Source: Bdellovibrionales bacterium (lineage in GTDB: Bacteria > Bdellovibrionota > Bdellovibrionia > Bdellovibrionales > JAUICD01). From it: a stretch of 64,000 nucleotides of DNA. Location of the stretch: the NCBI GenBank assembly GCA_965197425.1, contig CBDANC010000015.1, forward strand, positions 128,001 through 192,000, in the 5' to 3' direction. Below, piece after piece: positions 21,604 to 32,984 of the stretch. The translations under genes were made by a program, and so were the position numbers. Below the pieces are notes generated by a model, which ran no database searches, was not told the origin of the DNA, and saw only the letters and a list, made by a program, of their open reading frames with translations. How positions within the stretch are numbered: position 1 is the stretch's first letter; each line of letters opens with the position of its first letter.

Positions 21604-22898
21604 GGAAGAAGAATTCCTCTTTTTTCGTTAATTGACCGTGTTACTTTTTGAAAGTTACTTTCTCCGTTTGCAGTTGATATACCGGTGGAGTTTGTTGGTT
21701 TGTTTACGCTTGCTATGCTTCTTTGTTTAGCTTTTTCTCCTCCAGGAAGAAATTTCTTTAAATCAAAAAAGCTGGACTTGCCTCCGCCGAATCCATCTAA
21801 ATTAGATGAAGGGGAAGCATTAGATGGGGTGCCGTCTGTATATCCTCCGCCACCGCTTCCGCCGCTACCTCCGCCGCCACCTCCAGCAGATTGTACTCCT
21901 CCTAAAATGTCTGTGTCATAGCCAGGGCTTCCTCCTGAAGCTCCACCAGATGAGCCTCCACCGGAGTCACTGCTTCCGCCACCTCCTCCGCCAAGGCCAC
22001 CGCCGCCTCCACCTGGAGGGCTAAATCCACCGCTTCCGTTAGCTCCTTGGGATCCAAAGTCTGCTGGCTCTTCGTCTCTAAGTAGCTCATCTAGATCGTA
22101 GTTTTCATCTCCAAAGCCTTGGTTTTGTTGTTGACTGAAAGGGTCCATGTTCATGTTACCGGCTGCTCCACTGCACATAGGTGATGATGGATCTCTTAGG
22201 CATGCACAAGCTGGTTTATTGAAGTGTTCAGGTTTCCCACAATCTTCTGGAGATATGTTGCCACCTGCGGCAGCTGCATTTTGGTTTGATTCATCTTCCA
22301 TCTTCTTACAGGAGTCCATCATCCTTTTAACATTTGCGCCACTTAAAGCAGTCTGTGCTGTTAGTTGCCATTTGAAATCGCTAAATTCTTTACACTTTCT
22401 CTGGCTTACAATCCAACTAGTAAGGCCATTACCAGTAAGGCCAATGCTCTCAGGGTCCGCTGCACAAGCTGAATTACAAGCTGATACAGCCTGCCAGCAT
22501 TTACCAGTTAAGAATCCATTCATAGCAGCAGACAGCCATGTGGTACCTTCTAAAATATCACATGTCTTTTTCATATCATTAGATGCATAGGCAGACCCCA
22601 GAGCTGGTAGCATAGTTGTAAGTGCGGTAAGCCCACCTCCTACAGTGGACATATCACCCATGCACCATCTTTCCGCTGCACTAACCGCATTATGACAAGC
22701 ATTTAGTAGGTTCGTTGGCTCGTTAGGTGCAACTTCTCTAATAATGTTTAGTGTTGGAATATGTTGTTGGATTGTTCTATCTGTCTCTGGTAAGTAAGAG
22801 GGGTCTGGATCTCCTTCTGAGTTTTGTGAGTACAAATTGGTGGAAACTCCACTCGTAATGGCTAAAAATGCCAATAAAGCTAACCTTAAAAAATTCAC
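21600..22898 (-). CDS. Hypothetical secreted Cys-containing, Gly/Ser-rich protein
   Basis: Signal peptide, paired Cys, long poly-Gly/Ser segment, C-terminal ISTANGESNFQKVTRSI. Confidence 0.75.
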   Translation of the reverse strand: MNFLRLALLAFLAITSGVSTNLYSQNSEGDPDPSYLPETDRTIQQHIPTLNIIREVAPNEPTNLLNACHNAVSAAERWCMGDMSTVGGGLTALTTMLPALGSAYASNDMKKTCDILEGTTWLSAAMNGFLTGKCWQAVSACNSACAADPESIGLTGNGLTSWIVSQRKCKEFSDFKWQLTAQTALSGANVKRMMDSCKKMEDESNQNAAAAGGNISPEDCGKPEHFNKPACACLRDPSSPMCSGAAGNMNMDPFSQQQNQGFGDENYDLDELLRDEEPADFGSQGANGSGGFSPPGGGGGGLGGGGGGSSDSGGGSSGGASGGSPGYDTDILGGVQSAGGGGGGSGGSGGGGYTDGTPSNASPSSNLDGFGGGKSSFFDLKKFLPGGEKAKQRSIASVNKPTNSTGISTANGESNFQKVTRSINEKRGILLP

Positions 22899-22954
22899 TT
22901 ATATACCCTCACTTATAGACGATCTACAGCTCATGTACCTTCGGCAAATTTCGA

Positions 22955-23112
22955 ACTAAAGGTGAGCTTAATGAGGCAAAAAACAAGGAGGCTTTGCCTA
23001 CCTTTTTTTGCCGAGTGGCTCCTTCCTGGTGGGCCTCATGGCTGATTCCTCTGTTCGGGTATTCTGGCATTCCGGAACTCAAGCAACCAGTCAGTGTTAA
23101 CCTCACCTTCAC
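22955..23112. repeat. Two back-to-back type-B hairpin repeat elements
   Basis: Minus-strand GGAGCCACTCGGCAAAAAAAGGTAGGCAAAGCCTCCTTGTTTTTTGCCTCATTAAGCTCACCTTTAGT, then a plus-strand hairpin ending GTTAACCTCACCTT. Confidence 0.75.
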
Positions 23113-23182
23113 ACTGTATTTTATTGGGATTTTCTAAAAAAAGTTATAGCAATGTGTATCTTGTTTGCTATGATCTTGTTTC

Positions 23183-23335
23183 ATGGGATGGGGCTTTCGA
23201 AACAAGAACTCTCACAGGGGTATTGACAGTAGTGCTGTTGGTGGTGTTGCTGATAAAGAAGCTAATACTAAAAACACTAGTAATAACGAATATTTAGCTG
23301 TACCCCCCCCTCTAAAATTCCGCACAGAGGTTTAA
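23183..23335 (+). CDS. 50-aa ORF spanning a C8 tract; candidate out-of-frame N-terminus of the giant pilin-like gene
   Basis: ATG 23183 MGWGFRNK...YLAVPPPLKFRTEV*; with C9 at 23303-23310 it would continue in frame into the prepilin ORF. Confidence 0.45.
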   Translation: MGWGFRNKNSHRGIDSSAVGGVADKEANTKNTSNNEYLAVPPPLKFRTEV

Positions 23336-26300
23336 AGTTACGCTTAAGTAATGCATATTTCAAACAGAATAAAAGTTGGTTTAAGCCACTATTAAAATGC
23401 CTCCGCCTGCAAGGTGGTAAATGCCTCCATCTGCAAGGTGGTGGGTACTCTACTGGTGGTAAATGCCCCCACCTGCAAGGTGGTGGATACTCCACTGGTG
23501 GTGGTTTTACTTTAATAGAGACTGTAGTTGGTTTAGCCTTAGTATCCATATCTGGTTTTGTAGTTACATTTATATCTGGTCAGATGAACACGGCATCTAA
23601 GTTGACTGATGATTCCTATGAATGTGCAGCTATAGCTACTAATGTAATGGAGAGATTTTCTCAGGGTGGCTTAGAGCCTATTGTTTTGCTTAACTCAGAG
23701 CATTTCCCTGGTACTCCTCCTACTGATTTTGAAGCAGCTATAGAAGAAAGAAGCACTATATCTGTAAACACTAGTGGAGAGGCTACTCATAATGCTGGTC
23801 CTAATCTTGTTATAGAGCCTCATGGTAGTAATAGTCACATTACTTTGAAAGTAGATAAGTTTCATAGAGGTAGTGGTGTTAGTTTAGTAGAAGATTTATT
23901 TAACGAGTACCGTTCTACCATATGTCCATCTAATGTAGATAACCTGACCTTTGATCTTGCTAATGATATGGTGATTACCTACAAGGCTGGTAACACTGCT
24001 AAGCTGATAGACTTACATAAGAAGCTAGATGATGTAAAACCAGCAACTCCAGGACCTGAACCTGATTACTATAAGGAAATGGCTGATGCTAATTTATCTT
24101 CTAATAACTATGCTTGGGATACTTTTACCTCTGAGTACTTATATGGTTTATCCAAGAGTCTCAAAAATGCCTTAAATTTGCATCTCTTAGCAGGTTTTAC
24201 TGATTATAGTACTAGTTATACTAATACTGCTCAGCCATATGATGTGAAGATAGGTATAAGGCCTTGGAGTTTATCTAATCGTAGTGCTCTTGGTTGTACT
24301 GATACTAAGGTTCATCCAGCAGTCTTTTTAAGACCTGGTTCTAAATATGACAGATACATTACAGATAGTATTTTAGGCACCAACGAATTAGAGAGACAGA
24401 ATAAGATTGGTTATAAGCTGGAGAGGAGTCTAACTTCAGCTAAGATGAGGTCAGATGTAGGTTTGAAGTTATTTGTTGAAGTTAAAACAAGACCTGGTGT
24501 GGATAAGTTAGAAAGATCCTGTAAGTCAAATAAGTTATTTGCTTATGCTAACAGCTTTGCAGTTCCTCCATCTAGAAGACCTGTATATGTTCACCATGAC
24601 AGAGAGATTAAAGATGGTTCTAATGATTTTATAGCTTCCACAACTCACCCTCTTCAAAACAACCCTGGTTTAAATGTTGGTTATAAGTATGGTGCTGCTG
24701 ATTCTATCCCTACTAAGCCTGATGGTGCTACTCATGCTACTCTTAGTGATTATGCTACAGAAGCTACATTAAACTTTAGGAATATTGGTAAGGTTTGGAG
24801 AGATGTAAACAACCCTAGTTCCTTTGCTGATGATGAGGAAGATTTTAGAGGGGTCTTTTTATGTGGTTTTGAGAAGAATCGTTTTGAAGACTGTGTTAAA
24901 GGCCCCCCCGATTGTGATGATATACCAGGTTTAAGCTCCTATAGGACTTTTGGTACTAATGGTGCACATAAGGCTGGTATAAGAAGCTATGATACTGAGT
25001 ATGGTAGTAGAGATGGCTCCGTAAACTCATCTAGGAGATGGGATTTATGTGAGAACTTTAAGCTTACCCCCAGTCAATCTAATAATTCTACCACACTAAA
25101 AGCCAGTGCATCCAATGTAGATGATGGTAAGTTAGGACTTGAGTTAGATAATTTAAATGTATCCAGTTGGCCTGATGAAGATCAGGATGCTGATTATAGA
25201 GTTAGATTTAAGTTAGTAGATGAATATGGTAATGATTACTCTGCCACAGAAAATGGACAGATACAGGAGGATGATTATACCGAGGAGCATAGAGTTTTTG
25301 CCTACAACTGTGCACAGTTTGGTAATACTCATGCTTCTGGTAGTTATCAAAATCCCCCTATAGGCTGTGGAGTTATAAATCCTGATCCTAATATTGCTAA
25401 GTACAACCGTAGGATAGATAATCCTTTCTATAATACCCAAGCAGATTGTGAACATCAGTTTAACCTACTTTCCAGCCCCAGTGCTCAATGTGTGAAAGTT
25501 ACTAATATTAGGGTTTACAATGATTATTTTGATGATTCCATAGAGGAGAGGACAGGTCCTGCGAACAGCCCTGTTCGTCCTGTTAATGGTACTGGAGTTA
25601 CCTGTGATTATTGGGTTGAGCAATGTGTAAAAGATGGTACAGCCTGTGTGCAATGTGGCCAAGGTTATATGCGTGATTATCCTAATGCCACAAGACAATC
25701 TTGTCATGGAGGTTCTGCAAGCTTAGGTGGAGTTACCTGTTATAAAGCAGGCTCTCATTGTTGTCATAATGATTATGGTAGTTTTAACTGTTTTACAGGT
25801 AAGGATCCTTGTTCAAATCCTAATGGTTGTGGATTTAACCAAGATCCTACCTGTGGAGCTACCTGTGGTGATAACGGCCACGGATGTAATATTTGTACAG
25901 GAGCTACTCCTTGTAACACAGCTGGTTGTGATAGTTGTAGTTTTGGTACTGCTGGAGTTTGTCAATATAAGTGTAGTTTCCCTACTCAGTACTGTGATGG
26001 TGCTAGTAATTGTGTAGAATGTCTGAATGACGGCCACTGTGGTGGTAATGATATATGTTGTTCTTACAGTTGTAAGGCCCCATGTAGTCCAGATTCTGAT
26101 CAATGTGAGGAGTGTGCTAGTGATTGTGCATCTCCTCATTCAATATGTGGTTCTGGTGAAGGGTGTAATGGTAGTGGGTGTTGTGTAGAGCTACCGCCTT
26201 GGTGTAATCCTGCATGTACAGGTACAGATATATGTTGTGGTACTGGTACTTGTCAGTCTAGTTGTGCTCCCCTGAATGTTGGTGCATGTACTTCTGGTAA

Positions 26301-28719
26301 TACACCTCCGCCTCCATGTCCTGGTGGTCAGATAATGTGTGGTGGTAGTTGTAGGATTGCAGCTTGTAATAATGATAATGACTGTAATTCAGGTGAGACC
26401 TGTCAGAATGGAGGAAGTTGTACTGCTACATGTGCAGGTGTTACCTGTGGTACTGGTAGTATGACGGGCTATCCTAATTCTCCTCCTGATCCAGGGTGTG
26501 GAGCTACAAGTAGAATCGCAAGTGGTGTAGAATGCTGGACAGATCCAAATTGTACAGGAAGTACTCCGAACTGCTGTGGCACAACTTGTCAGGCCACTTG
26601 TGGCTGTACCTCAGATATTGAGTGCTCTGTGCCTACACCGGCTACTCCGTGTTGTGTTGGTACTACCTGTGCTGCTGCAGCTTGTACAGTAGATCCTAAT
26701 AATTGTGTAACATGTCCTACTGGCTCGTGTGGTACTCCAGTTACAGGGCCAGCAACTTGTACGGCGGACCCGAATACATGTACCACATGTCCTAATGGTC
26801 CATGTGGTACTCCAGTTACAACAACTCCTTGTGGTCCATGTAACCCACCAACTTGCACGCCGGATCCTGATAATTGTGTAACATGTCCTACTGGCTCATG
26901 TGGTACTCCAGTGACGGGAACAGCAACTTGTACGGCGGACCCGAATACATGTACTACATGTTCTAATGGCCCATGTGGTACTCCAGTTACAACAACTCCT
27001 TGTGGTCCATGTACTTCTAATAGTGACTGTGCTGATCCAGCTAAGCCGAATTGTTGTGGTGGAAGCTGTCAAGCAGTCACTTGCGTAAGTACACCATGTA
27101 CTTCTAATGGTGACTGTGCTGATCCAGCTAAGCCGAATTGTTGTGGTGGAAGCTGTCAAGCAGCTACTTGTCCAGTAAACTGTGGTACACCTACTTGTGA
27201 TGACTGTGAGACACAACAAAATTGTACTGGAACAGGGTGGACCTGTGCACCTAAAACTGATGGAACTAGTTGTGGCACATGTGGAACATGCAGTAGCGGG
27301 TCTTGTAATGAACCGGCTACTTGTCCAGTAAACTGTGGTACACCTACTTGTGATGACTGTGAGACACAACAAAATTGTACTGGAACAGGGTGGACCTGTG
27401 CACCTAAAACTGATGGAACTAGTTGTGGCACATGTGGAACATGCAGTAGCGGGTCTTGTAATGAACCGGCTACTTGTCCAGTAAACTGTGGTACACCTAC
27501 TTGTGATGACTGTGAGACACAACAAAATTGTACTGGAACAGGGTGGACCTGTGCACCTAAAACTGATGGAACTAGTTGTGGCACATGTGGAACATGCAGT
27601 AGCGGGTCTTGTAATGAACCGGCTACTTGTCCAGTAAACTGTGGTACACCTACTTGTGATGACTGTGAGACACAACAAAATTGTACTGGAACAGGGTGGA
27701 CCTGTGCACCTAAAACTGATGGAACTAGTTGTGGCACATGTGGAACATGCAGTAGCGGGTCTTGTAATGAACCGGCTACTTGTCCAGTAAACTGTGGTAC
27801 ACCTACTTGTGATGACTGTGAGACACAACAAAATTGTACTGGAACAGGGTGGACCTGTGCACCTAAAACTGATGGAACTAGTTGTGGCACATGTGGAACA
27901 TGCAGTAGCGGGTCTTGTAATGAACCGGCTACTTGTCCAGTAAACTGTGGTACACCTACTTGTGATGACTGTGAGACACAACAAAATTGTACTGGAACAG
28001 GGTGGACCTGTGCACCTAAAACTGATGGAACTAGTTGTGGCACATGTGGAACATGCAGTAGCGGGTCTTGTAATGAACCGGCTACTTGTCCAGTAAACTG
28101 TGGTACACCTACTTGTGATGACTGTGAGACACAACAAAATTGTACTGGAACAGGGTGGACCTGTGCACCTAAAACTGATGGAACTAGTTGTGGCACATGT
28201 GGAACATGCAGTAGCGGGTCTTGTAATGAACCGGCTACTTGTCCAGTAAACTGTGGTACACCTACTTGTGATGACTGTGAGACACAACAAAATTGTACTG
28301 GAACAGGGTGGACCTGTGCACCTAAAACTGATGGAACTAGTTGTGGCACATGTGGAACATGCAGTAGCGGGTCTTGTAATGAACCATCACCCTGTCCATG
28401 TACCTCCGATAGCGAATGTGGTGCGGGTGAAAGATGTTGTTCTGGTGACTGCATAGAACCTGCTTGTAGCAGTGATGGTGATTGCAATTCAGGTGAAACT
28501 TGTGAAAATCCAGGAGATTGTAATGCCAGTTGTGTTGATCCGTGTGACGGTGCAAGAGATTGTCAGGCTAGTAATGCTTTCGATGTCAGTGATTTGTCGA
28601 GTTGCACGGCGTGGGCAATTGGAGCAGGCTTGGGTGAATGTAACCCGCTACCACCAAGTTGCGAAGCATTCTATCATAACAGCACACTTTGTTGTTATGT
28701 AGCTGTGTGCGGATTTTAG
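23287..28719 (+). CDS. Giant Cys-rich type IV pilin-like surface protein (start uncertain)
   Basis: Frame is open from 23287; G|FTLIETVVGLALVSISGFVVTFISG prepilin motif (Phe codon 23506) lies upstream of the ORF-track ATG 23584; C-terminal ~1000 aa are Cys-rich repeats. Confidence 0.85.
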   Translation, partial: RIFSCTPPSKIPHRGLKLRLSNAYFKQNKSWFKPLLKCLRLQGGKCLHLQGGGYSTGGKCPHLQGGGYSTGGGFTLIETVVGLALVSISGFVVTFISGQMNTASKLTDDSYECAAIATNVMERFSQGGLEPIVLLNSEHFPGTPPTDFEAAIEERSTISVNTSGEATHNAGPNLVIEPHGSNSHITLKVDKFHRGSGVSLVEDLFNEYRSTICPSNVDNLTFDLANDMVITYKAGNTAKLIDLHKKLDDVKPATPGPEPDYYKEMADANLSSNNYAWDTFTSEYLYGLSKSLKNALNLHLLAGFTDYSTSYTNTAQPYDVKIGIRPWSLSNRSALGCTDTKVHPAVFLRPGSKYDRYITDSILGTNELERQNKIGYKLERSLTSAKMRSDVGLKLFVEVKTRPGVDKLERSCKSNKLFAYANSFAVPPSRRPVYVHHDREIKDGSNDFIASTTHPLQNNPGLNVGYKYGAADSIPTKPDGATHATLSDYATEATLNFRNIGKVWRDVNNPSSFADDEEDFRGVFLCGFEKNRFEDCVKGPPDCDDIPGLSSYRTFGTNGAHKAGIRSYDTEYGSRDGSVNSSRRWDLCENFKLTPSQSNNSTTLKASASNVDDGKLGLELDNLNVSSWPDEDQDADYRVRFKLVDEYGNDYSATENGQIQEDDYTEEHRVFAYNCAQFGNTHASGSYQNPPIGCGVINPDPNIAKYNRRIDNPFYNTQADCEHQFNLLSSPSAQCVKVTNIRVYNDYFDDSIEERTGPANSPVRPVNGTGVTCDYWVEQCVKDGTACVQCGQGYMRDYPNATRQSCHGGSASLGGVTCYKAGSHCCHNDYGSFNCFTGKDPCSNPNGCGFNQDPTCGATCGDNGHGCNICTGATPCNTAGCDSCSFGTAGVCQYKCSFPTQYCDGASNCVECLNDGHCGGNDICCSYSCKAPCSPDSDQCEECASDCASPHSICGSGEGCNGSGCCVELPPWCNPACTGTDICCGTGTCQSSCAPLNVGACTSGNTPPPPCPGGQIMCGGSCRIAACNNDNDCNSGETCQNGGSCTATCAGVTCGTGSMTGYPNSPPDPGCGATSRIASGVECWTDPNCTGSTPNCCGTTCQATCGCTSDIECSVPTPATPCCVGTTCAAAACTVDPNNCVTCPTGSCGTPVTGPATCTADPNTCTTCPNGPCGTPVTTTPCGPCNPPTCTPDPDNCVTCPTGSCGTPVTGTATCTADPNTCTTCSNGPCGTPVTTTPCGPCTSNSDCADPAKPNCCGGSCQAVTCVSTPCTSNGDCADPAKPNCCGGSCQAATCPVNCGTPTCDDCETQQNCTGTGWTCAPKTDGTSCGTCGTCSSGSCNEPATCPVNCGTPTCDDCETQQNCTGTGWTCAPKTDGTSCGTCGTCSSGSCNEPATCPVNCGTPTCDDCETQQNCTGTGWTCAPKTDGTSCGTCGTCSSGSCNEPATCPVNCGTPTCDDCETQQNCTGTGWTCAPKTDGTSCGTCGTCSSGSCNEPATCPVNCGTPTCDDCETQQNCTGTGWTCAPKTDGTSCGTCGTCSSGSCNEPATCPVNCGTPTCDDCETQQNCTGTGWTCAPKTDGTSCGTCGTCSSGSCNEPATCPVNCGTPTCDDCETQQNCTGTGWTCAPKTDGTSCGTCGTCSSGSCNEPATCPVNCGTPTCDDCETQQNCTGTGWTCAPKTDGTSCGTCGTCSSGSCNEPSPCPCTSDSECGAGERCCSGDCIEPACSSDGDCNSGETCENPGDCNASCVDPCDGARDCQASNAFDVSDLSSCTAWAIGAGLGECNPLPPSCEAFYHNSTLCCYVAVCGF
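23395..23502 (+). repeat. Tandem repeat (24 + 42 + 42 bp) in the prepilin leader, encoding KC(L/P)(R/H)LQGG(GYSTGG)
   Basis: AAATGCC..C..CTGCAAGGTGGT units read directly; contains GTGGATACTCCAC at 23483-23495. Confidence 0.9.
26680..27162 (+). repeat. Degenerate coding duplications in the giant protein: 2 x 171 bp and 2 x 87 bp
   Basis: DPxNCVTCPTGSCGTPVTG...CGPC at 26692 and 26863; CTSNxDCADPAKPNCCGGSCQA twice at about 27007 and 27094. Confidence 0.88.
27163..28385 (+). repeat. 8 x 153-bp tandem repeat (51-aa unit with 10 Cys)
   Basis: TGTGGTACACC recurs at 27181, 27334, 27487, 27640, 27793, 27946, 28099, 28252; no differences between units seen by eye. Confidence 0.97.
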
Positions 28720-28982: not shown

Positions 28983-31900
28983 TTAATGTTTAGCTCTCAG
29001 TGCTTTTGCAGTTATTGCATTGGAAACTGTCGAAAGATCTAAAGGAGCAACACTCCTATCAGAATATTCAGAAACAGTTTTAATTGTATACTGTGCTGCC
29101 TCAGATGAGTCTGCAACAATACCCCTATGAGGTCCTCCAATTCTAATTGAACTATTAGAAAGATTGTTATTGTGATGATAACGGCAGTATCCAACATATG
29201 AATCTATATCGACATCTTCACAAAGTTCCGATACTAAAACCTCCTTGTCAGCGCTAAATACAGGAACGAATTGATTGGTCCCAGAATAGGACATTATAGT
29301 TGAAACTGGAAGATCGCTTAGATACCCTCCATAGCCATAGCCAAACCCAGTAGCATTTGCACCATTAAGTCCAAACGATCCCGGATCTGCCCCAGCGTTC
29401 AACAGTGTATCTACATCATGGTGAAGACCTAAAATATGACCAATTTCATGCGCTAATATACTAGAAGCTGAATAGTAGTTACCACTACTATTACTTGAAA
29501 AGAAATGATCCCTAACCCTTACAACTCCCCTAGAGTTCCATCTGGATAAAGAGTGATGATTAATATAGAACGGATTTATTGTTGCCGCACCACCTCCTGT
29601 GCCAAGAACAACTGAAAAAATTATGTCAGCAGGGTGATCCTTACGAATAATCGGGAGGAACTCCAAAAGTAATGCTTGTTCCCCTTGTCCATATGAAGAG
29701 CCAGCATTAAGCCTTTCATCTTCAAAAAATAAATCATCAAAGGAAGGCAGATCACATAGCAAATACCCTCTATACTCAGAAAAAGGACTCATTACTGAAG
29801 CCCTAAGCTCAACATTTATCCCAGATCTCTGAAATAACCTGTTTGTATTTTCAATAACATTATCTTCAAACTTCTTTCGCCAATCACCAATAGCATTGTT
29901 TACAATAGTATCTGAAAAAATGAATGCAGCATCAATAACATACCTAGTGTTAGGCTCTGCTTTTTCAAACTTTTGTCTTTGCTCATCACCACCAAATATA
30001 TCATCCGACATTGCACCATCAAAGGCTACGTCATCTGGTAAAGAGGCAAATGCTCCAGTTGCATATGTATCACATGTAAAACGATCTACTTCCTCCTGAT
30101 CACCATGCTGCTCATGATAGCGATCATAACTTGATGTAGATGGTCTGTATTCAACATCACAAGAATTGAAAGCATACACAACTCCATAATCTCCATGATA
30201 AAATGTTTTTGTGTCGTCTAAATAGGAATTAACAGAGCTACTATCAGCGATCTTAGCTACATCAGATCTTCTGGCAAAATTGCTGACCACAACATCATAA
30301 ACAACCCACTCAGTAAAAATTTCTCCGAAATGTGTTGCAGGCTCATACGGAGGATTTATAGTAATAACAGTCTTACCACCTAAATGACTTACCGATGCTA
30401 GGTTCAAACCTATAGGTCCGTTTAATCTTACACGATCCTCTCTAGGCCGATATTCCCTTTCAGAAATCTCTATCATCTCTAGAATATCTTCCTTTGTAAT
30501 CTCTCGCCACTGGCCAGAATCAGGTAAATATACAACCTCTGAATCAAAATAAATCTTTATAACTTCTGTTGGATCCCAACTGGACTCAATTAACTCCCTT
30601 CCTCCTCTTGGAGTGAAAGTGTAGACTACCTGAGGAATCCTAATGCAGTCCTTCGAGCCATCATCATTTGTTAGCTCAAAATAGCCAGAAGCATTCTCTT
30701 CACACAAGGTGCTAATATTAGGTGTTGAAAATGAAGAGTATTCTTTGTTTATTAGTGCAAGGTAGTCTTCTGTGTTGGTAGCATCTAAGACTTTCGAGAC
30801 GTTTAAAGAACTGGCATAGTTTTTTACCTTTACTGAATAACTTCCAGCAGGATAGCTTGGTTGAGGAGTTAGGATAAAATATGAGCTTTCCTCCTCAACT
30901 CCTGCTTCCATCTGAAATCTAAATGTACTAGTTAATAGATTTGTGCCTCCTGTGTTTAGTTCGATCATGTTTCTTGCAAAAGCTGCTGTAAGCCCTTCAT
31001 AACGAGAAGAATCTATAAAACTTATTCTTTCATCAAAACTTACCTTTATAGAGTGATCTGAGATTGTAGATGTATCTTCTACGGTGTTTCCTTCTTTATC
31101 AAGGTAAGTAATAGTAGGAGGGTTTATAAGCTTAATACAATCTGTTGTATTATCATCATAAGTTAACTCAAAATAACCAACTTCTTCTCTTCCACAAGGA
31201 GTTTCTATGTTAAAAGGTTGTTCTTGGCTTATTTCAGCTAGATAGCTTTGAATGTTATTACTTGCTAAAATAGCTCCATCATCATCACTTTTTGCATAAT
31301 TACCTACAGACAATACATACTGACCCAGCTCATATCTATTATCATTAGGAGGATTTATAGTAATAACTGTATTTTCGTTAGATTCTGTGACAGATATCTG
31401 ATCTTCACCAATAGGACCATCTACAGTTGCAAGATCAACTCCTGAACTATTAGTAATTGCAATCATTTCTAAGATATTTGGCTTGGTTAGACTGTTGGAT
31501 GTAATACCGTCTGTGTACACTATCTTAGCATCAAACTCCATTCTTATAATAGTGGTAGGATCTCCACTGTGTTCATCAGAAAAACTTTCTTTATCTTGTG
31601 TAAAGGTAAAGCTTAGTTGAGGTAGCTTTATACAACTAGTAGTTAAATTATTATTTGTTAGCTCAAAATAACCAGGTTCATTATTAGTACAAGAAGTTGG
31701 TATTACAGGAGATGTAAAAGAGGATAAGGACTGTGACATAGCATTAATCTTGCTAAGATACTCAGCTCTGTTAGTAGCATTAGCAATCTTGGATATATCA
31801 GCCTTCTTTGCATAATTACTCACACCAACTACATAATCTCCAGCAGGGTAGTTGGTTTCCGGAGTTAAAGTAAAAGAAGTCTCATCACTTGAAATCTCTA

Positions 31901-32984
31901 TGGTAAAACCAAAGCCAACATCTAACAGATCTATATTGCCTAACTTTATATCAACCATCTTAACTACATTCTCGGGAGTTAAGTTTCCATGGTCAGTAGC
32001 ATCAATAAAGCCTACAGCCTCTTTGAAGGTTACCTTTATGCTGTGATTTGTGATTTCATTTGTGTTTATAACATTCCCATCTTCATCAAGATAAGTAATA
32101 GTAGGAGGTTCGATGAGCTGTATACAGTTGCTAGCACTATTACCAGTAGAACTAGTTAGCTGAAAATACCCTGGTTCTCCCCTGGTACAAGGAGTCTCTA
32201 TTATTGGATCAGGATCTGGTTCTGTAACATCACCACATGAAGCTATACCTAGTGTGGCTAATATTAACATAGCTCCATTCAAAACAGGCTTTACTCTAGA
32301 AGTTACTAAGTTTGATCTTACTAAATTTCTTGCTAATTTTAACCTTTTAATGGGGGTAAAGGAAATAAGAAGTCCTGCTGCGGAAACTCCGCTGGTAACT
32401 GAAAATGTAGAGCTTCCTTCGTTAGATAATGTGGGATTATTAGAGTTTTGAGCTTGAACATTGGAATTACCTAATTCTAAGCCTCTTAGAGCAGATTCAC
32501 CATAAGACTTATAATCACTGTTATTTCTACCGTCTTCTATGCTTTTACTATTACCAGTGGAGTATCCATCTACATTTGTAAAACCAAGTGCTCTACAAAA
32601 TGATTGGTTGGTGTTTGAGTCAGAAGAACATAGAGATGATACAAACTCTAGGATGCTCTCAGTACAACCTTCGGTATCAATTAATAAATTTCCATTAGAA
32701 TCTGTCTTTTGTAGTTTATCGAAGAATTCCTGTGAAGACAGGGTGGATACTCCACTCGTACTATTTGCCTCAGTTTGAGTAACTTCCTGTAAAACCTCAC
32801 ATGAAGAGACTGCACTTTGTGCTAATCTAAGATCCGTTGTACTAGGATCTGTGAAACTGTTGAAGTGTCCGCTTTGGGCATTAGAATTAACTGAGAAAAC
32901 GAGAAGAAGTAAAAAACTCACTCGGGTTATGTAATCACTACGAATGGTGTAATCAAAGAAATTATATTTTAATAAATTTCTCAA
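28983..32984 (-). CDS. Large secreted metzincin (reprolysin/M12-like) zinc metalloprotease with four internal repeats
   Basis: HEIGHILGLHHD zinc motif and STIMSY Met-turn near the C-terminus; four C..GYFxLT..C-headed domains; GAGGAG SD before a TTG start. Confidence 0.85.
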   Translation of the reverse strand: MRNLLKYNFFDYTIRSDYITRVSFLLLLVFSVNSNAQSGHFNSFTDPSTTDLRLAQSAVSSCEVLQEVTQTEANSTSGVSTLSSQEFFDKLQKTDSNGNLLIDTEGCTESILEFVSSLCSSDSNTNQSFCRALGFTNVDGYSTGNSKSIEDGRNNSDYKSYGESALRGLELGNSNVQAQNSNNPTLSNEGSSTFSVTSGVSAAGLLISFTPIKRLKLARNLVRSNLVTSRVKPVLNGAMLILATLGIASCGDVTEPDPDPIIETPCTRGEPGYFQLTSSTGNSASNCIQLIEPPTITYLDEDGNVINTNEITNHSIKVTFKEAVGFIDATDHGNLTPENVVKMVDIKLGNIDLLDVGFGFTIEISSDETSFTLTPETNYPAGDYVVGVSNYAKKADISKIANATNRAEYLSKINAMSQSLSSFTSPVIPTSCTNNEPGYFELTNNNLTTSCIKLPQLSFTFTQDKESFSDEHSGDPTTIIRMEFDAKIVYTDGITSNSLTKPNILEMIAITNSSGVDLATVDGPIGEDQISVTESNENTVITINPPNDNRYELGQYVLSVGNYAKSDDDGAILASNNIQSYLAEISQEQPFNIETPCGREEVGYFELTYDDNTTDCIKLINPPTITYLDKEGNTVEDTSTISDHSIKVSFDERISFIDSSRYEGLTAAFARNMIELNTGGTNLLTSTFRFQMEAGVEEESSYFILTPQPSYPAGSYSVKVKNYASSLNVSKVLDATNTEDYLALINKEYSSFSTPNISTLCEENASGYFELTNDDGSKDCIRIPQVVYTFTPRGGRELIESSWDPTEVIKIYFDSEVVYLPDSGQWREITKEDILEMIEISEREYRPREDRVRLNGPIGLNLASVSHLGGKTVITINPPYEPATHFGEIFTEWVVYDVVVSNFARRSDVAKIADSSSVNSYLDDTKTFYHGDYGVVYAFNSCDVEYRPSTSSYDRYHEQHGDQEEVDRFTCDTYATGAFASLPDDVAFDGAMSDDIFGGDEQRQKFEKAEPNTRYVIDAAFIFSDTIVNNAIGDWRKKFEDNVIENTNRLFQRSGINVELRASVMSPFSEYRGYLLCDLPSFDDLFFEDERLNAGSSYGQGEQALLLEFLPIIRKDHPADIIFSVVLGTGGGAATINPFYINHHSLSRWNSRGVVRVRDHFFSSNSSGNYYSASSILAHEIGHILGLHHDVDTLLNAGADPGSFGLNGANATGFGYGYGGYLSDLPVSTIMSYSGTNQFVPVFSADKEVLVSELCEDVDIDSYVGYCRYHHNNNLSNSSIRIGGPHRGIVADSSEAAQYTIKTVSEYSDRSVAPLDLSTVSNAITAKALRAKH

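Follow-up and report, generated by a model that had tools for sequence, protein, structure and literature searches.

The locus analysed here raises the question of how a long reading frame that encodes a type IV prepilin-like N-terminus could be translated when no common start codon precedes it, and what part a poly-C tract just upstream might play. The window, i.e., the whole stretch of 64,000 nt that was analysed, corresponds to positions 128001-192000 of contig C15 in the source genome (G000), which comprises 1.6 Mb in 15 contigs, has a G+C content of about 35% and is 99.37% complete; because of the contig label, the gene copy in the window is called the C15 copy or, simply, the window copy. 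Among the 80 of 591 RecA matches that were listed, the two best belong to genomes of Pseudobdellovibrionaceae (78% and 77%), and the source is therefore probably a member of the Bdellovibrionota.

Reading frames and parts of the window locus

A sequence-only reading of this DNA had proposed that the frame upstream of the ATG at 23584 encodes a prepilin cleavage motif, and we found GGG|FTLIETVVGLALVSISGFVVTFISG there, i.e., Gly|FTLIET and a hydrophobic stretch that begins at 23506. Its description of the frames could also be reproduced. The pilin frame is open from 23287, directly behind TAA TAA (23281-23286), and upstream of 23584 it contains no ATG, GTG or TTG, only ATA, ATT and CTG. The frame of another ATG, at 23183, crosses a run of eight cytosines (C8, 23303-23310) and ends at the TAA at 23333-23335 after 50 codons, while a run of C6 or C9 joins this ATG to the pilin frame; the computed C9 product has 1,845 aa with a leader of 108 aa. 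Lengths of 3n are thus in frame for the window copy, and C8 is not.

All of the following parts of the cassette lie on the forward strand. An element that is common to all four copies of the gene (23115-23182) is a putative promoter of what may be a leaderless-type transcript, and is followed by the 50-aa peptide that would be the OFF-state product (23183-23335), whose start is conserved in the copies on contigs C12, C14 and C6 as well as in the outside homologs P0004 and P0005. The post-tract half of the leader (23311-23505) is long, hydrophilic and basic and ends with Gly-1; the repeats at 23395-23502 are spaced by 24 and 42, and 42 nt, all of which are multiples of three, and preserve the frame as had been claimed. 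The type IV pilin-type N-terminus (23506-23580), with Phe+1, Glu+5 and the hydrophobic stretch, was recognised from the sequence, hydropathy and profile matches. It opens a predicted mature protein of 1,737 aa that is uninterrupted (23506-28719) and has 196 of its 204 Cys after residue 560; according to the repeat analysis, its variable tail contains eight perfect 153-nt repeats (27163-28385), each of which is a Cys-rich unit of 51 aa. Gene callers begin the gene at 23584, so that the pilin signal is lost, which is a trap for annotation. Upstream of the cassette lies a dispersed intergenic repeat of about 80 nt (22946-23046, no strand assigned), which gave 94 blastn lines in the genome and has a high depth in the public runs.

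Sister copies and tract statistics

The genome has four copies of the gene, on contigs C15, C12, C14 and C6, all of which share the upstream element, the start ATG and the poly-C tract in a leader of 71-108 codons. The C12 copy has a C9 tract and is in frame (1,533 aa), and its leader is nearly identical to that of the window copy plus one C. With C16 in both, the C14 copy is in frame (1,915 aa) and the C6 copy is out of frame (59 aa), as is the window copy with C8 (50 aa). Tract length therefore sets the reading frame and both states exist, two of the four copies being in frame and two out. The earlier proposal that the assembled allele is the OFF state and that one additional C restores the frame was borne out in that the predicted in-frame C9 state exists as the C12 copy; the C8 and C9 in the near-identical leaders of the C15 and C12 copies belong to paralogs at two loci.

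C or G runs of at least 8 nt occur only 12 times in the 1.6-Mb genome, and since four of these lie in the leaders of the four copies, their placement is more than chance. The two longest runs of the genome belong to this family, and runs of at least 9 nt number 10 compared to 0.32 expected by extrapolation from short runs. Among the 18 N_methyl matches in the genome, four are this family and 13 others were examined (a further weak match stands outside the count); none of these 13 prepilin-like genes had a C/G run of at least 7 nt within -400/+600 nt. The sister copies have tracts of C9, C16 and C16, and the C8 of the window copy is one under the G/C tract cut-off of 9 that is described for PhasomeIt (PMC5953494).

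Probable start site and coding character of the leader

None of the four copies has a stop in the ATG frame ahead of the tract or in the pilin frame behind it, compared to one to nine stops in the other frames. When the C15 and C12 leaders are compared, five of the seven changes are synonymous; between the pre-tract leaders of the C14 and C6 copies, all six changes are non-synonymous, which counts against a coding reading. Three sequences outside the genome share the same Met: P0004, which is 65% identical and has the Pro run in an in-frame leader of 83 aa; P0005, with an in-frame leader of 74 aa without a tract; and, from a different study, a contig of run X5, in which 222 nt without a tract make 74 codons in frame at the DNA level. 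We infer that the leader is translated from the ATG at 23183. A Shine-Dalgarno sequence is absent there, but an extended -10-like motif, TGcTATGAT (23166-23174), stops 8 nt short of the ATG, an arrangement that would be compatible with a leaderless transcript; a sigma-70 consensus scan of 22800-23700 found no full promoter. The alternative of a rare start codon, which the sequence-only reading had left standing, is a minor rival: ATA, ATT and CTG are in frame, but the only start-like codon after the tract that is shared is CTG, which lies 5-19 codons before Phe+1 in all four copies and lacks a ribosome-binding site.

Relatives and distribution of the tracts

Of 40 relatives, only G001, a sister species of the same genus, matched the window protein. 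All eight of its copies have a poly-G tract (G9-G13) 206-236 nt after Phe+1, which places it inside the mature part, and their leaders have no tract. Two of these copies are in frame, one copy also has a stop in the leader, and a TTG is found 10 codons before Phe+1 in four. In another genus, G002 has six giant Cys-rich pilin-like genes, five with C16-C19 in a leader of 60-67 codons and an ATG with a Shine-Dalgarno-like stretch ahead of the tract; two of these five are in frame. G004 has eight similar genes, only one of them with a leader tract (C19, in frame). An hhalign comparison of the G002 and G004 proteins with the window protein aligned 57 N-terminal columns (E 1.3e-6), while BLASTP found nothing; we treat them as the same architecture, the link to the window protein being shown for the pilin head. 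Across these genomes and G000, seven of the 18 tract-bearing genes are in frame, which is near the one third expected of random length, although kin are not independent and, for G001, G002 and G004, the length given for a long run may be wrong by one.

A joint profile found matches in seven of 201 genomes of the order and was strong only in four of the five genomes of this family; the three weak genomes have single genes of 500-620 aa with a leader without a tract. Against 1.84 billion representatives, the same profile gave 107 matches, 105 of them new. A recognisable pilin start was present in 58 of the new matches, and 31 of these have a leader longer than 26 aa; six of the long leaders have a run of at least four Pro, and a seventh, P0022, was added by eye. 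P0020 has the leader of a G002 gene with four instead of six Pro (94.5% identical), and in P0060, P0063, P0064 and P0080, which are not encoded at the G001 loci examined, a stop comes just after the Gly run. In such protein-only matches, Pro and Gly runs are a proxy for DNA tracts. Word-index protein searches returned only the genome's own copies together with P0004 and P0005, and no related loci were found in genome contigs with the window protein as query or in metagenome contigs with alignment A3 as query. It is likely that the tracts arose more than once.

Long runs are also common elsewhere in some of these genomes. G001 has 27 and G002 has 24 C/G runs of at least 12 nt compared to 0-3 in most of the 151 genomes counted in the order; high numbers were also found in G077 (31) and G089 (41, in clusters), and most of the non-pilin runs examined in G001 fall outside long open frames. 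A lack of mismatch repair was rejected as an explanation for the long tracts, as mutS and mutL are present in all five family genomes. In the source genome, C9-C10 runs lie 39-57 nt upstream of genes at C13:136258, C13:247885, C15:372515 and C15:374114; the genes behind them look secreted- or lipoprotein-like by eye, and the runs are candidates for promoter-type phase variation. Additionally, at C4:3-5150 the source genome has a giant gene that is rich in Cys and of the kind found in G002 and G004 (a 1,628-aa frame with 155 Cys), which is cut by the contig start and has a frameshift near 270-290, outside any homopolymer.

Pilin-like features of the proteins

A class III signal consists of a leader ending in Gly and then 20-25 hydrophobic residues with Glu5, its length being called variable (PMC10191384), and the leaders of described prepilins have 6-26 aa (PMC4471445). 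The signal of the window protein, G|FTLIETVVGLALVSISGFVVTFISG, has a leader that ends in Gly, a hydrophobic stretch and Glu5. Hydropathy over 19 residues reaches 2.1 in the pilin stretch, and none of the four proteins tested has a second such stretch. The leaders are basic and hydrophilic, with a maximum hydropathy of at most 0.15 in three of four and 1.57 in P0004, and at 71-108 aa they are far outside the described range. The Pfam N_methyl scores of 14.6 and 18 bits are below the curated cut-off of 21.2, which one G001 copy passes with 22.5. The best matches of the family profile in the PDB were pilins (E 1e-5). In the AlphaFold model, which has a mean pLDDT of 31.6, only the helix at residues 2-54 is suggestive of a pilin fold, and in the ESM Atlas, pilin-like as well as unnamed clusters came up at 0.92, but the counts of shared features were low, which makes this a lead only. 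Neither Pfam nor NCBIfam named any domain in the tail. The genome encodes a PilD with a methylase domain and six pilus/T2SS-type ATPases with strong matches. Judged by its sequence, the window protein is a predicted type IV prepilin by the class III definition in all respects except its leader length and the Pfam cut-off.

Mosaic copies and the metzincin partner

The leader of the window copy resembles that of the C12 copy, while its body shares 3,203 identical nt with the C14 copy; accordingly, the first approximately 1,080 aa of the mature protein are 99% identical to the C14 copy. The bodies of the C12 and C6 copies, in turn, match each other. These mosaics suggest recent recombination, a mis-join across the identical block being the alternative; the frame state of the window copy is set upstream of this block.

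Downstream of the window copy lies a convergent gene (28983-32984, reverse strand) that encodes a metzincin-type metallopeptidase of 1,333 aa (Reprolysin-like, HExxHxxGxxH). A paralog of it is placed tail-to-tail with all four copies in the source genome and directly downstream of seven of the eight G001 copies (six convergent, one tandem); no such partner was found at the six G002 loci. The metzincin gene is itself multi-copy with internal repeats, and more copies cluster at C13:280000-298000, away from the pilin genes. A lipoprotein-signal-like stretch was seen by eye about 230 residues into the window metzincin.

Parts of the cassette also occur on their own. At C15:82927-83132, directly after mutS and adjoining the dispersed repeat, there is an orphan that consists of the upstream element and the pre-tract leader (79% identical), with no C run, a 62-aa ORF and no pilin. 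A 61-nt copy of the upstream element at C13:37554-37614 ends just before the position of the ATG. Both may be what is left of lost copies, or they may belong to a promoter cassette that can move. Moreover, a single pilin-like gene at C12:152593-154470 (625 aa, 31 Cys) has a 7-aa leader and no tract; its matches to the two giant families are weak, and it may be similar to the gene from which they arose.

The tract in contigs of public runs

A comparison of strains, which had been suggested as a check, was made with contigs of public runs. A contig of run X1 (1,697 nt) covers 23176-24872 with no other letters and no gaps and keeps C8 unchanged, which argues against an assembly slip and weakens the earlier alternative of a homopolymer sequencing error; however, run X1 possibly stems from the source sample itself, and the C12 copy has the same tract flanks, so the contig is not independent proof of C8. 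A contig of run X4, which comes from another study and a related strain, has one more C, but it extends just 7 letters past the tract and is therefore not taken as bridging. Run X2 has a record that begins at the tract and none that bridges it, and X3 has no coverage of the tract. A mixture of tract lengths at the window locus was not seen in the assembled contigs of the runs, which drop minor alleles, and the switching itself is therefore not visible in them.

Discussion

In our view, the window locus is very probably the OFF copy of a four-copy family of giant Cys-rich type IV pilin-like proteins that undergoes slipped-strand phase variation via the poly-C tract in its leader. G/C runs are described as slipping during replication (PMC5953494), and such a change in the leader tract would switch each copy on or off, the ON state yielding a prepilin of 1,400-1,900 aa. 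PilD cleaves after the leader Gly on the cytoplasmic side (PMC10191384, PMC4471445), and at the predicted site here it would remove a cytoplasmic leader of 70-110 aa. As the leader would be discarded, the prolines of the tract would never be part of the mature protein and their number would be free to vary. Through the pilin head, the variable and disulfide-rich tail may then be displayed as an adhesin, either on a type IV filament or on the cell surface, a role that the architecture of the protein suggests. With several mosaic copies that switch independently, a population would have a mixed surface repertoire, which may serve as bet-hedging against variation in phage, prey or host.

This reading has to be weighed against others, one of which accepts that the family is phase-variable and takes the window copy as a contracted, nearly locked-off allele (C9 to C8) that is on its way to becoming a pseudogene or a silent recombination donor. 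Because C8 is below the cut-off of 9 and both mutS and mutL are present, the window copy may indeed revert slowly; its body is, in addition, redundant with the in-frame C14 copy across the 3,203 identical nt, and the orphan at C15:82927 is an example of a tract-less leader that has no pilin. We still consider a locked-off allele unlikely, as the frame of 1,737 aa is unbroken and shows no decay and the related strain of run X4 has one more C, albeit in a non-bridging contig. It is very unlikely that C8 is an assembly error, with C9 as the true allele and the gene simply on. The technology of the assembly and of runs X1 and X2 is not on record, there is the non-homopolymer frameshift on contig C4, and the tract flanks recur in the C12 copy. 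However, the X1 contig, even if possibly from the same sample and thus not independent, spans the tract without a difference; the genome is 99.37% complete with open frames of at least 100 aa covering 89% of it; and an error at one locus leaves the long tracts in all copies unexplained.

Two further explanations leave the tract in place and deny it the role of a heritable switch. Translation could begin at the CTG 11 codons before Phe+1, which would give a normal short leader and make the tract non-coding or active in transcription. The CTG in the pilin frame of all four copies, the TTG 10 codons before Phe+1 in four of the eight G001 copies and the missing Shine-Dalgarno sequence at the ATG at 23183 speak for such a start, but in the alignment, the CTG of the C14 and C6 copies also has none. 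Moreover, a CTG start does not explain why the pre-tract leader is free of stops and keeps its frame, why the tract-less relatives are in frame from the same Met or why G002 has the layout ATG, tract and pilin, and we give it hardly any probability. Alternatively, the C run could be a programmed site of ribosomal or transcriptional slippage with low constitutive expression, as proline tRNA is known to slip on CCC-C runs. In the DNA, however, tract length ranges from 8 to 19 among the copies and both frames occur, a pattern that one would expect if the tract is mutable, but not if it is a conserved recoding signal; recoding therefore appears extremely improbable.

The best-known examples of phase variation by slippage come from pathogens that are adapted to a host. 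In Neisseria, the opa genes are scattered over the genome in several copies that recombine, and each is switched through a coding repeat close to its 5' end; the present family would resemble them in these respects. Opa proteins are outer-membrane beta-barrels and their genes have pentamer repeats. The chimeric fibre proteins of Bdellovibrio bacteriovorus are phage-fibre-like trimers and not pilins. Like the proteins described here, they form a diversified, mosaic surface family within the Bdellovibrionota, one that has been tied to prey recognition (PMC10769870). A closer parallel in the position of the switch is offered by pilC1/pilC2 of Neisseria gonorrhoeae, which encode paralogous, pilus-associated surface proteins and are switched by a frameshift at a G/C homopolymer, a poly-G tract, in the region that codes for the export signal (PMC13190605, PMC13017665). 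PilC, however, is no pilin (PMC8179133), whereas the window protein has a predicted class III pilin N-terminus; here, the tract lies in a putative cytoplasmic leader of 71-108 aa, and there are 4-8 copies in an uncultured relative within the Bdellovibrionota. In the modular type IV pilins, such as PilB/PilC of S. sanguinis and CofB of ETEC, a large C-terminal module is also grafted onto a pilin head (PMC8179133). The most extreme multi-domain case of that survey has 860 aa, although its Dataset S1 may list longer ones, and the survey makes no mention of phase variation (PMC8179133). The proteins of the present family, by contrast, have 813-1,915 aa or more and contain as many as 214 Cys, but no extra domain that could be named; they also differ in their very long leader and in the putative switch tract. 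A 2026 review on Bdellovibrio mentions neither a slippage switch nor phase variation (PMC13689555), and our search, outside of which most of the subscription literature lies, found no paper that deals with phase variation in the Bdellovibrionota, nor one that describes such a tract within a prepilin leader. The points that appear new are the position of the tract within a class III leader that is very long and presumably cleaved off, the likely repeated origin of the tracts, the mosaic copies and the metzincin that adjoins nearly every copy in the genus, together with the ON/OFF set of four, the tract-less relatives and the occurrence in a second genus.

As a tentative extension, which we hold to be possible rather than probable, these small-genome Bdellovibrionota may have an opa-like variable surface system that is built of giant pilins, in which the stretched leader would be a disposable pad for independent tracts and in which leaders and bodies would recombine. 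In this genus, each pilin and its own metzincin might then form an attach-and-digest module that is directed at prey or host. A whole uncultured family of Bdellovibrio relatives appears to apply slippage switching to a multi-copy family of pilins that has not been described before, and such switching points to strong selection that fluctuates and acts on the cell surface of these presumed predators or symbionts. With about 100 aa, the leader would also probe the leader length that the prepilin peptidase and SRP accept.
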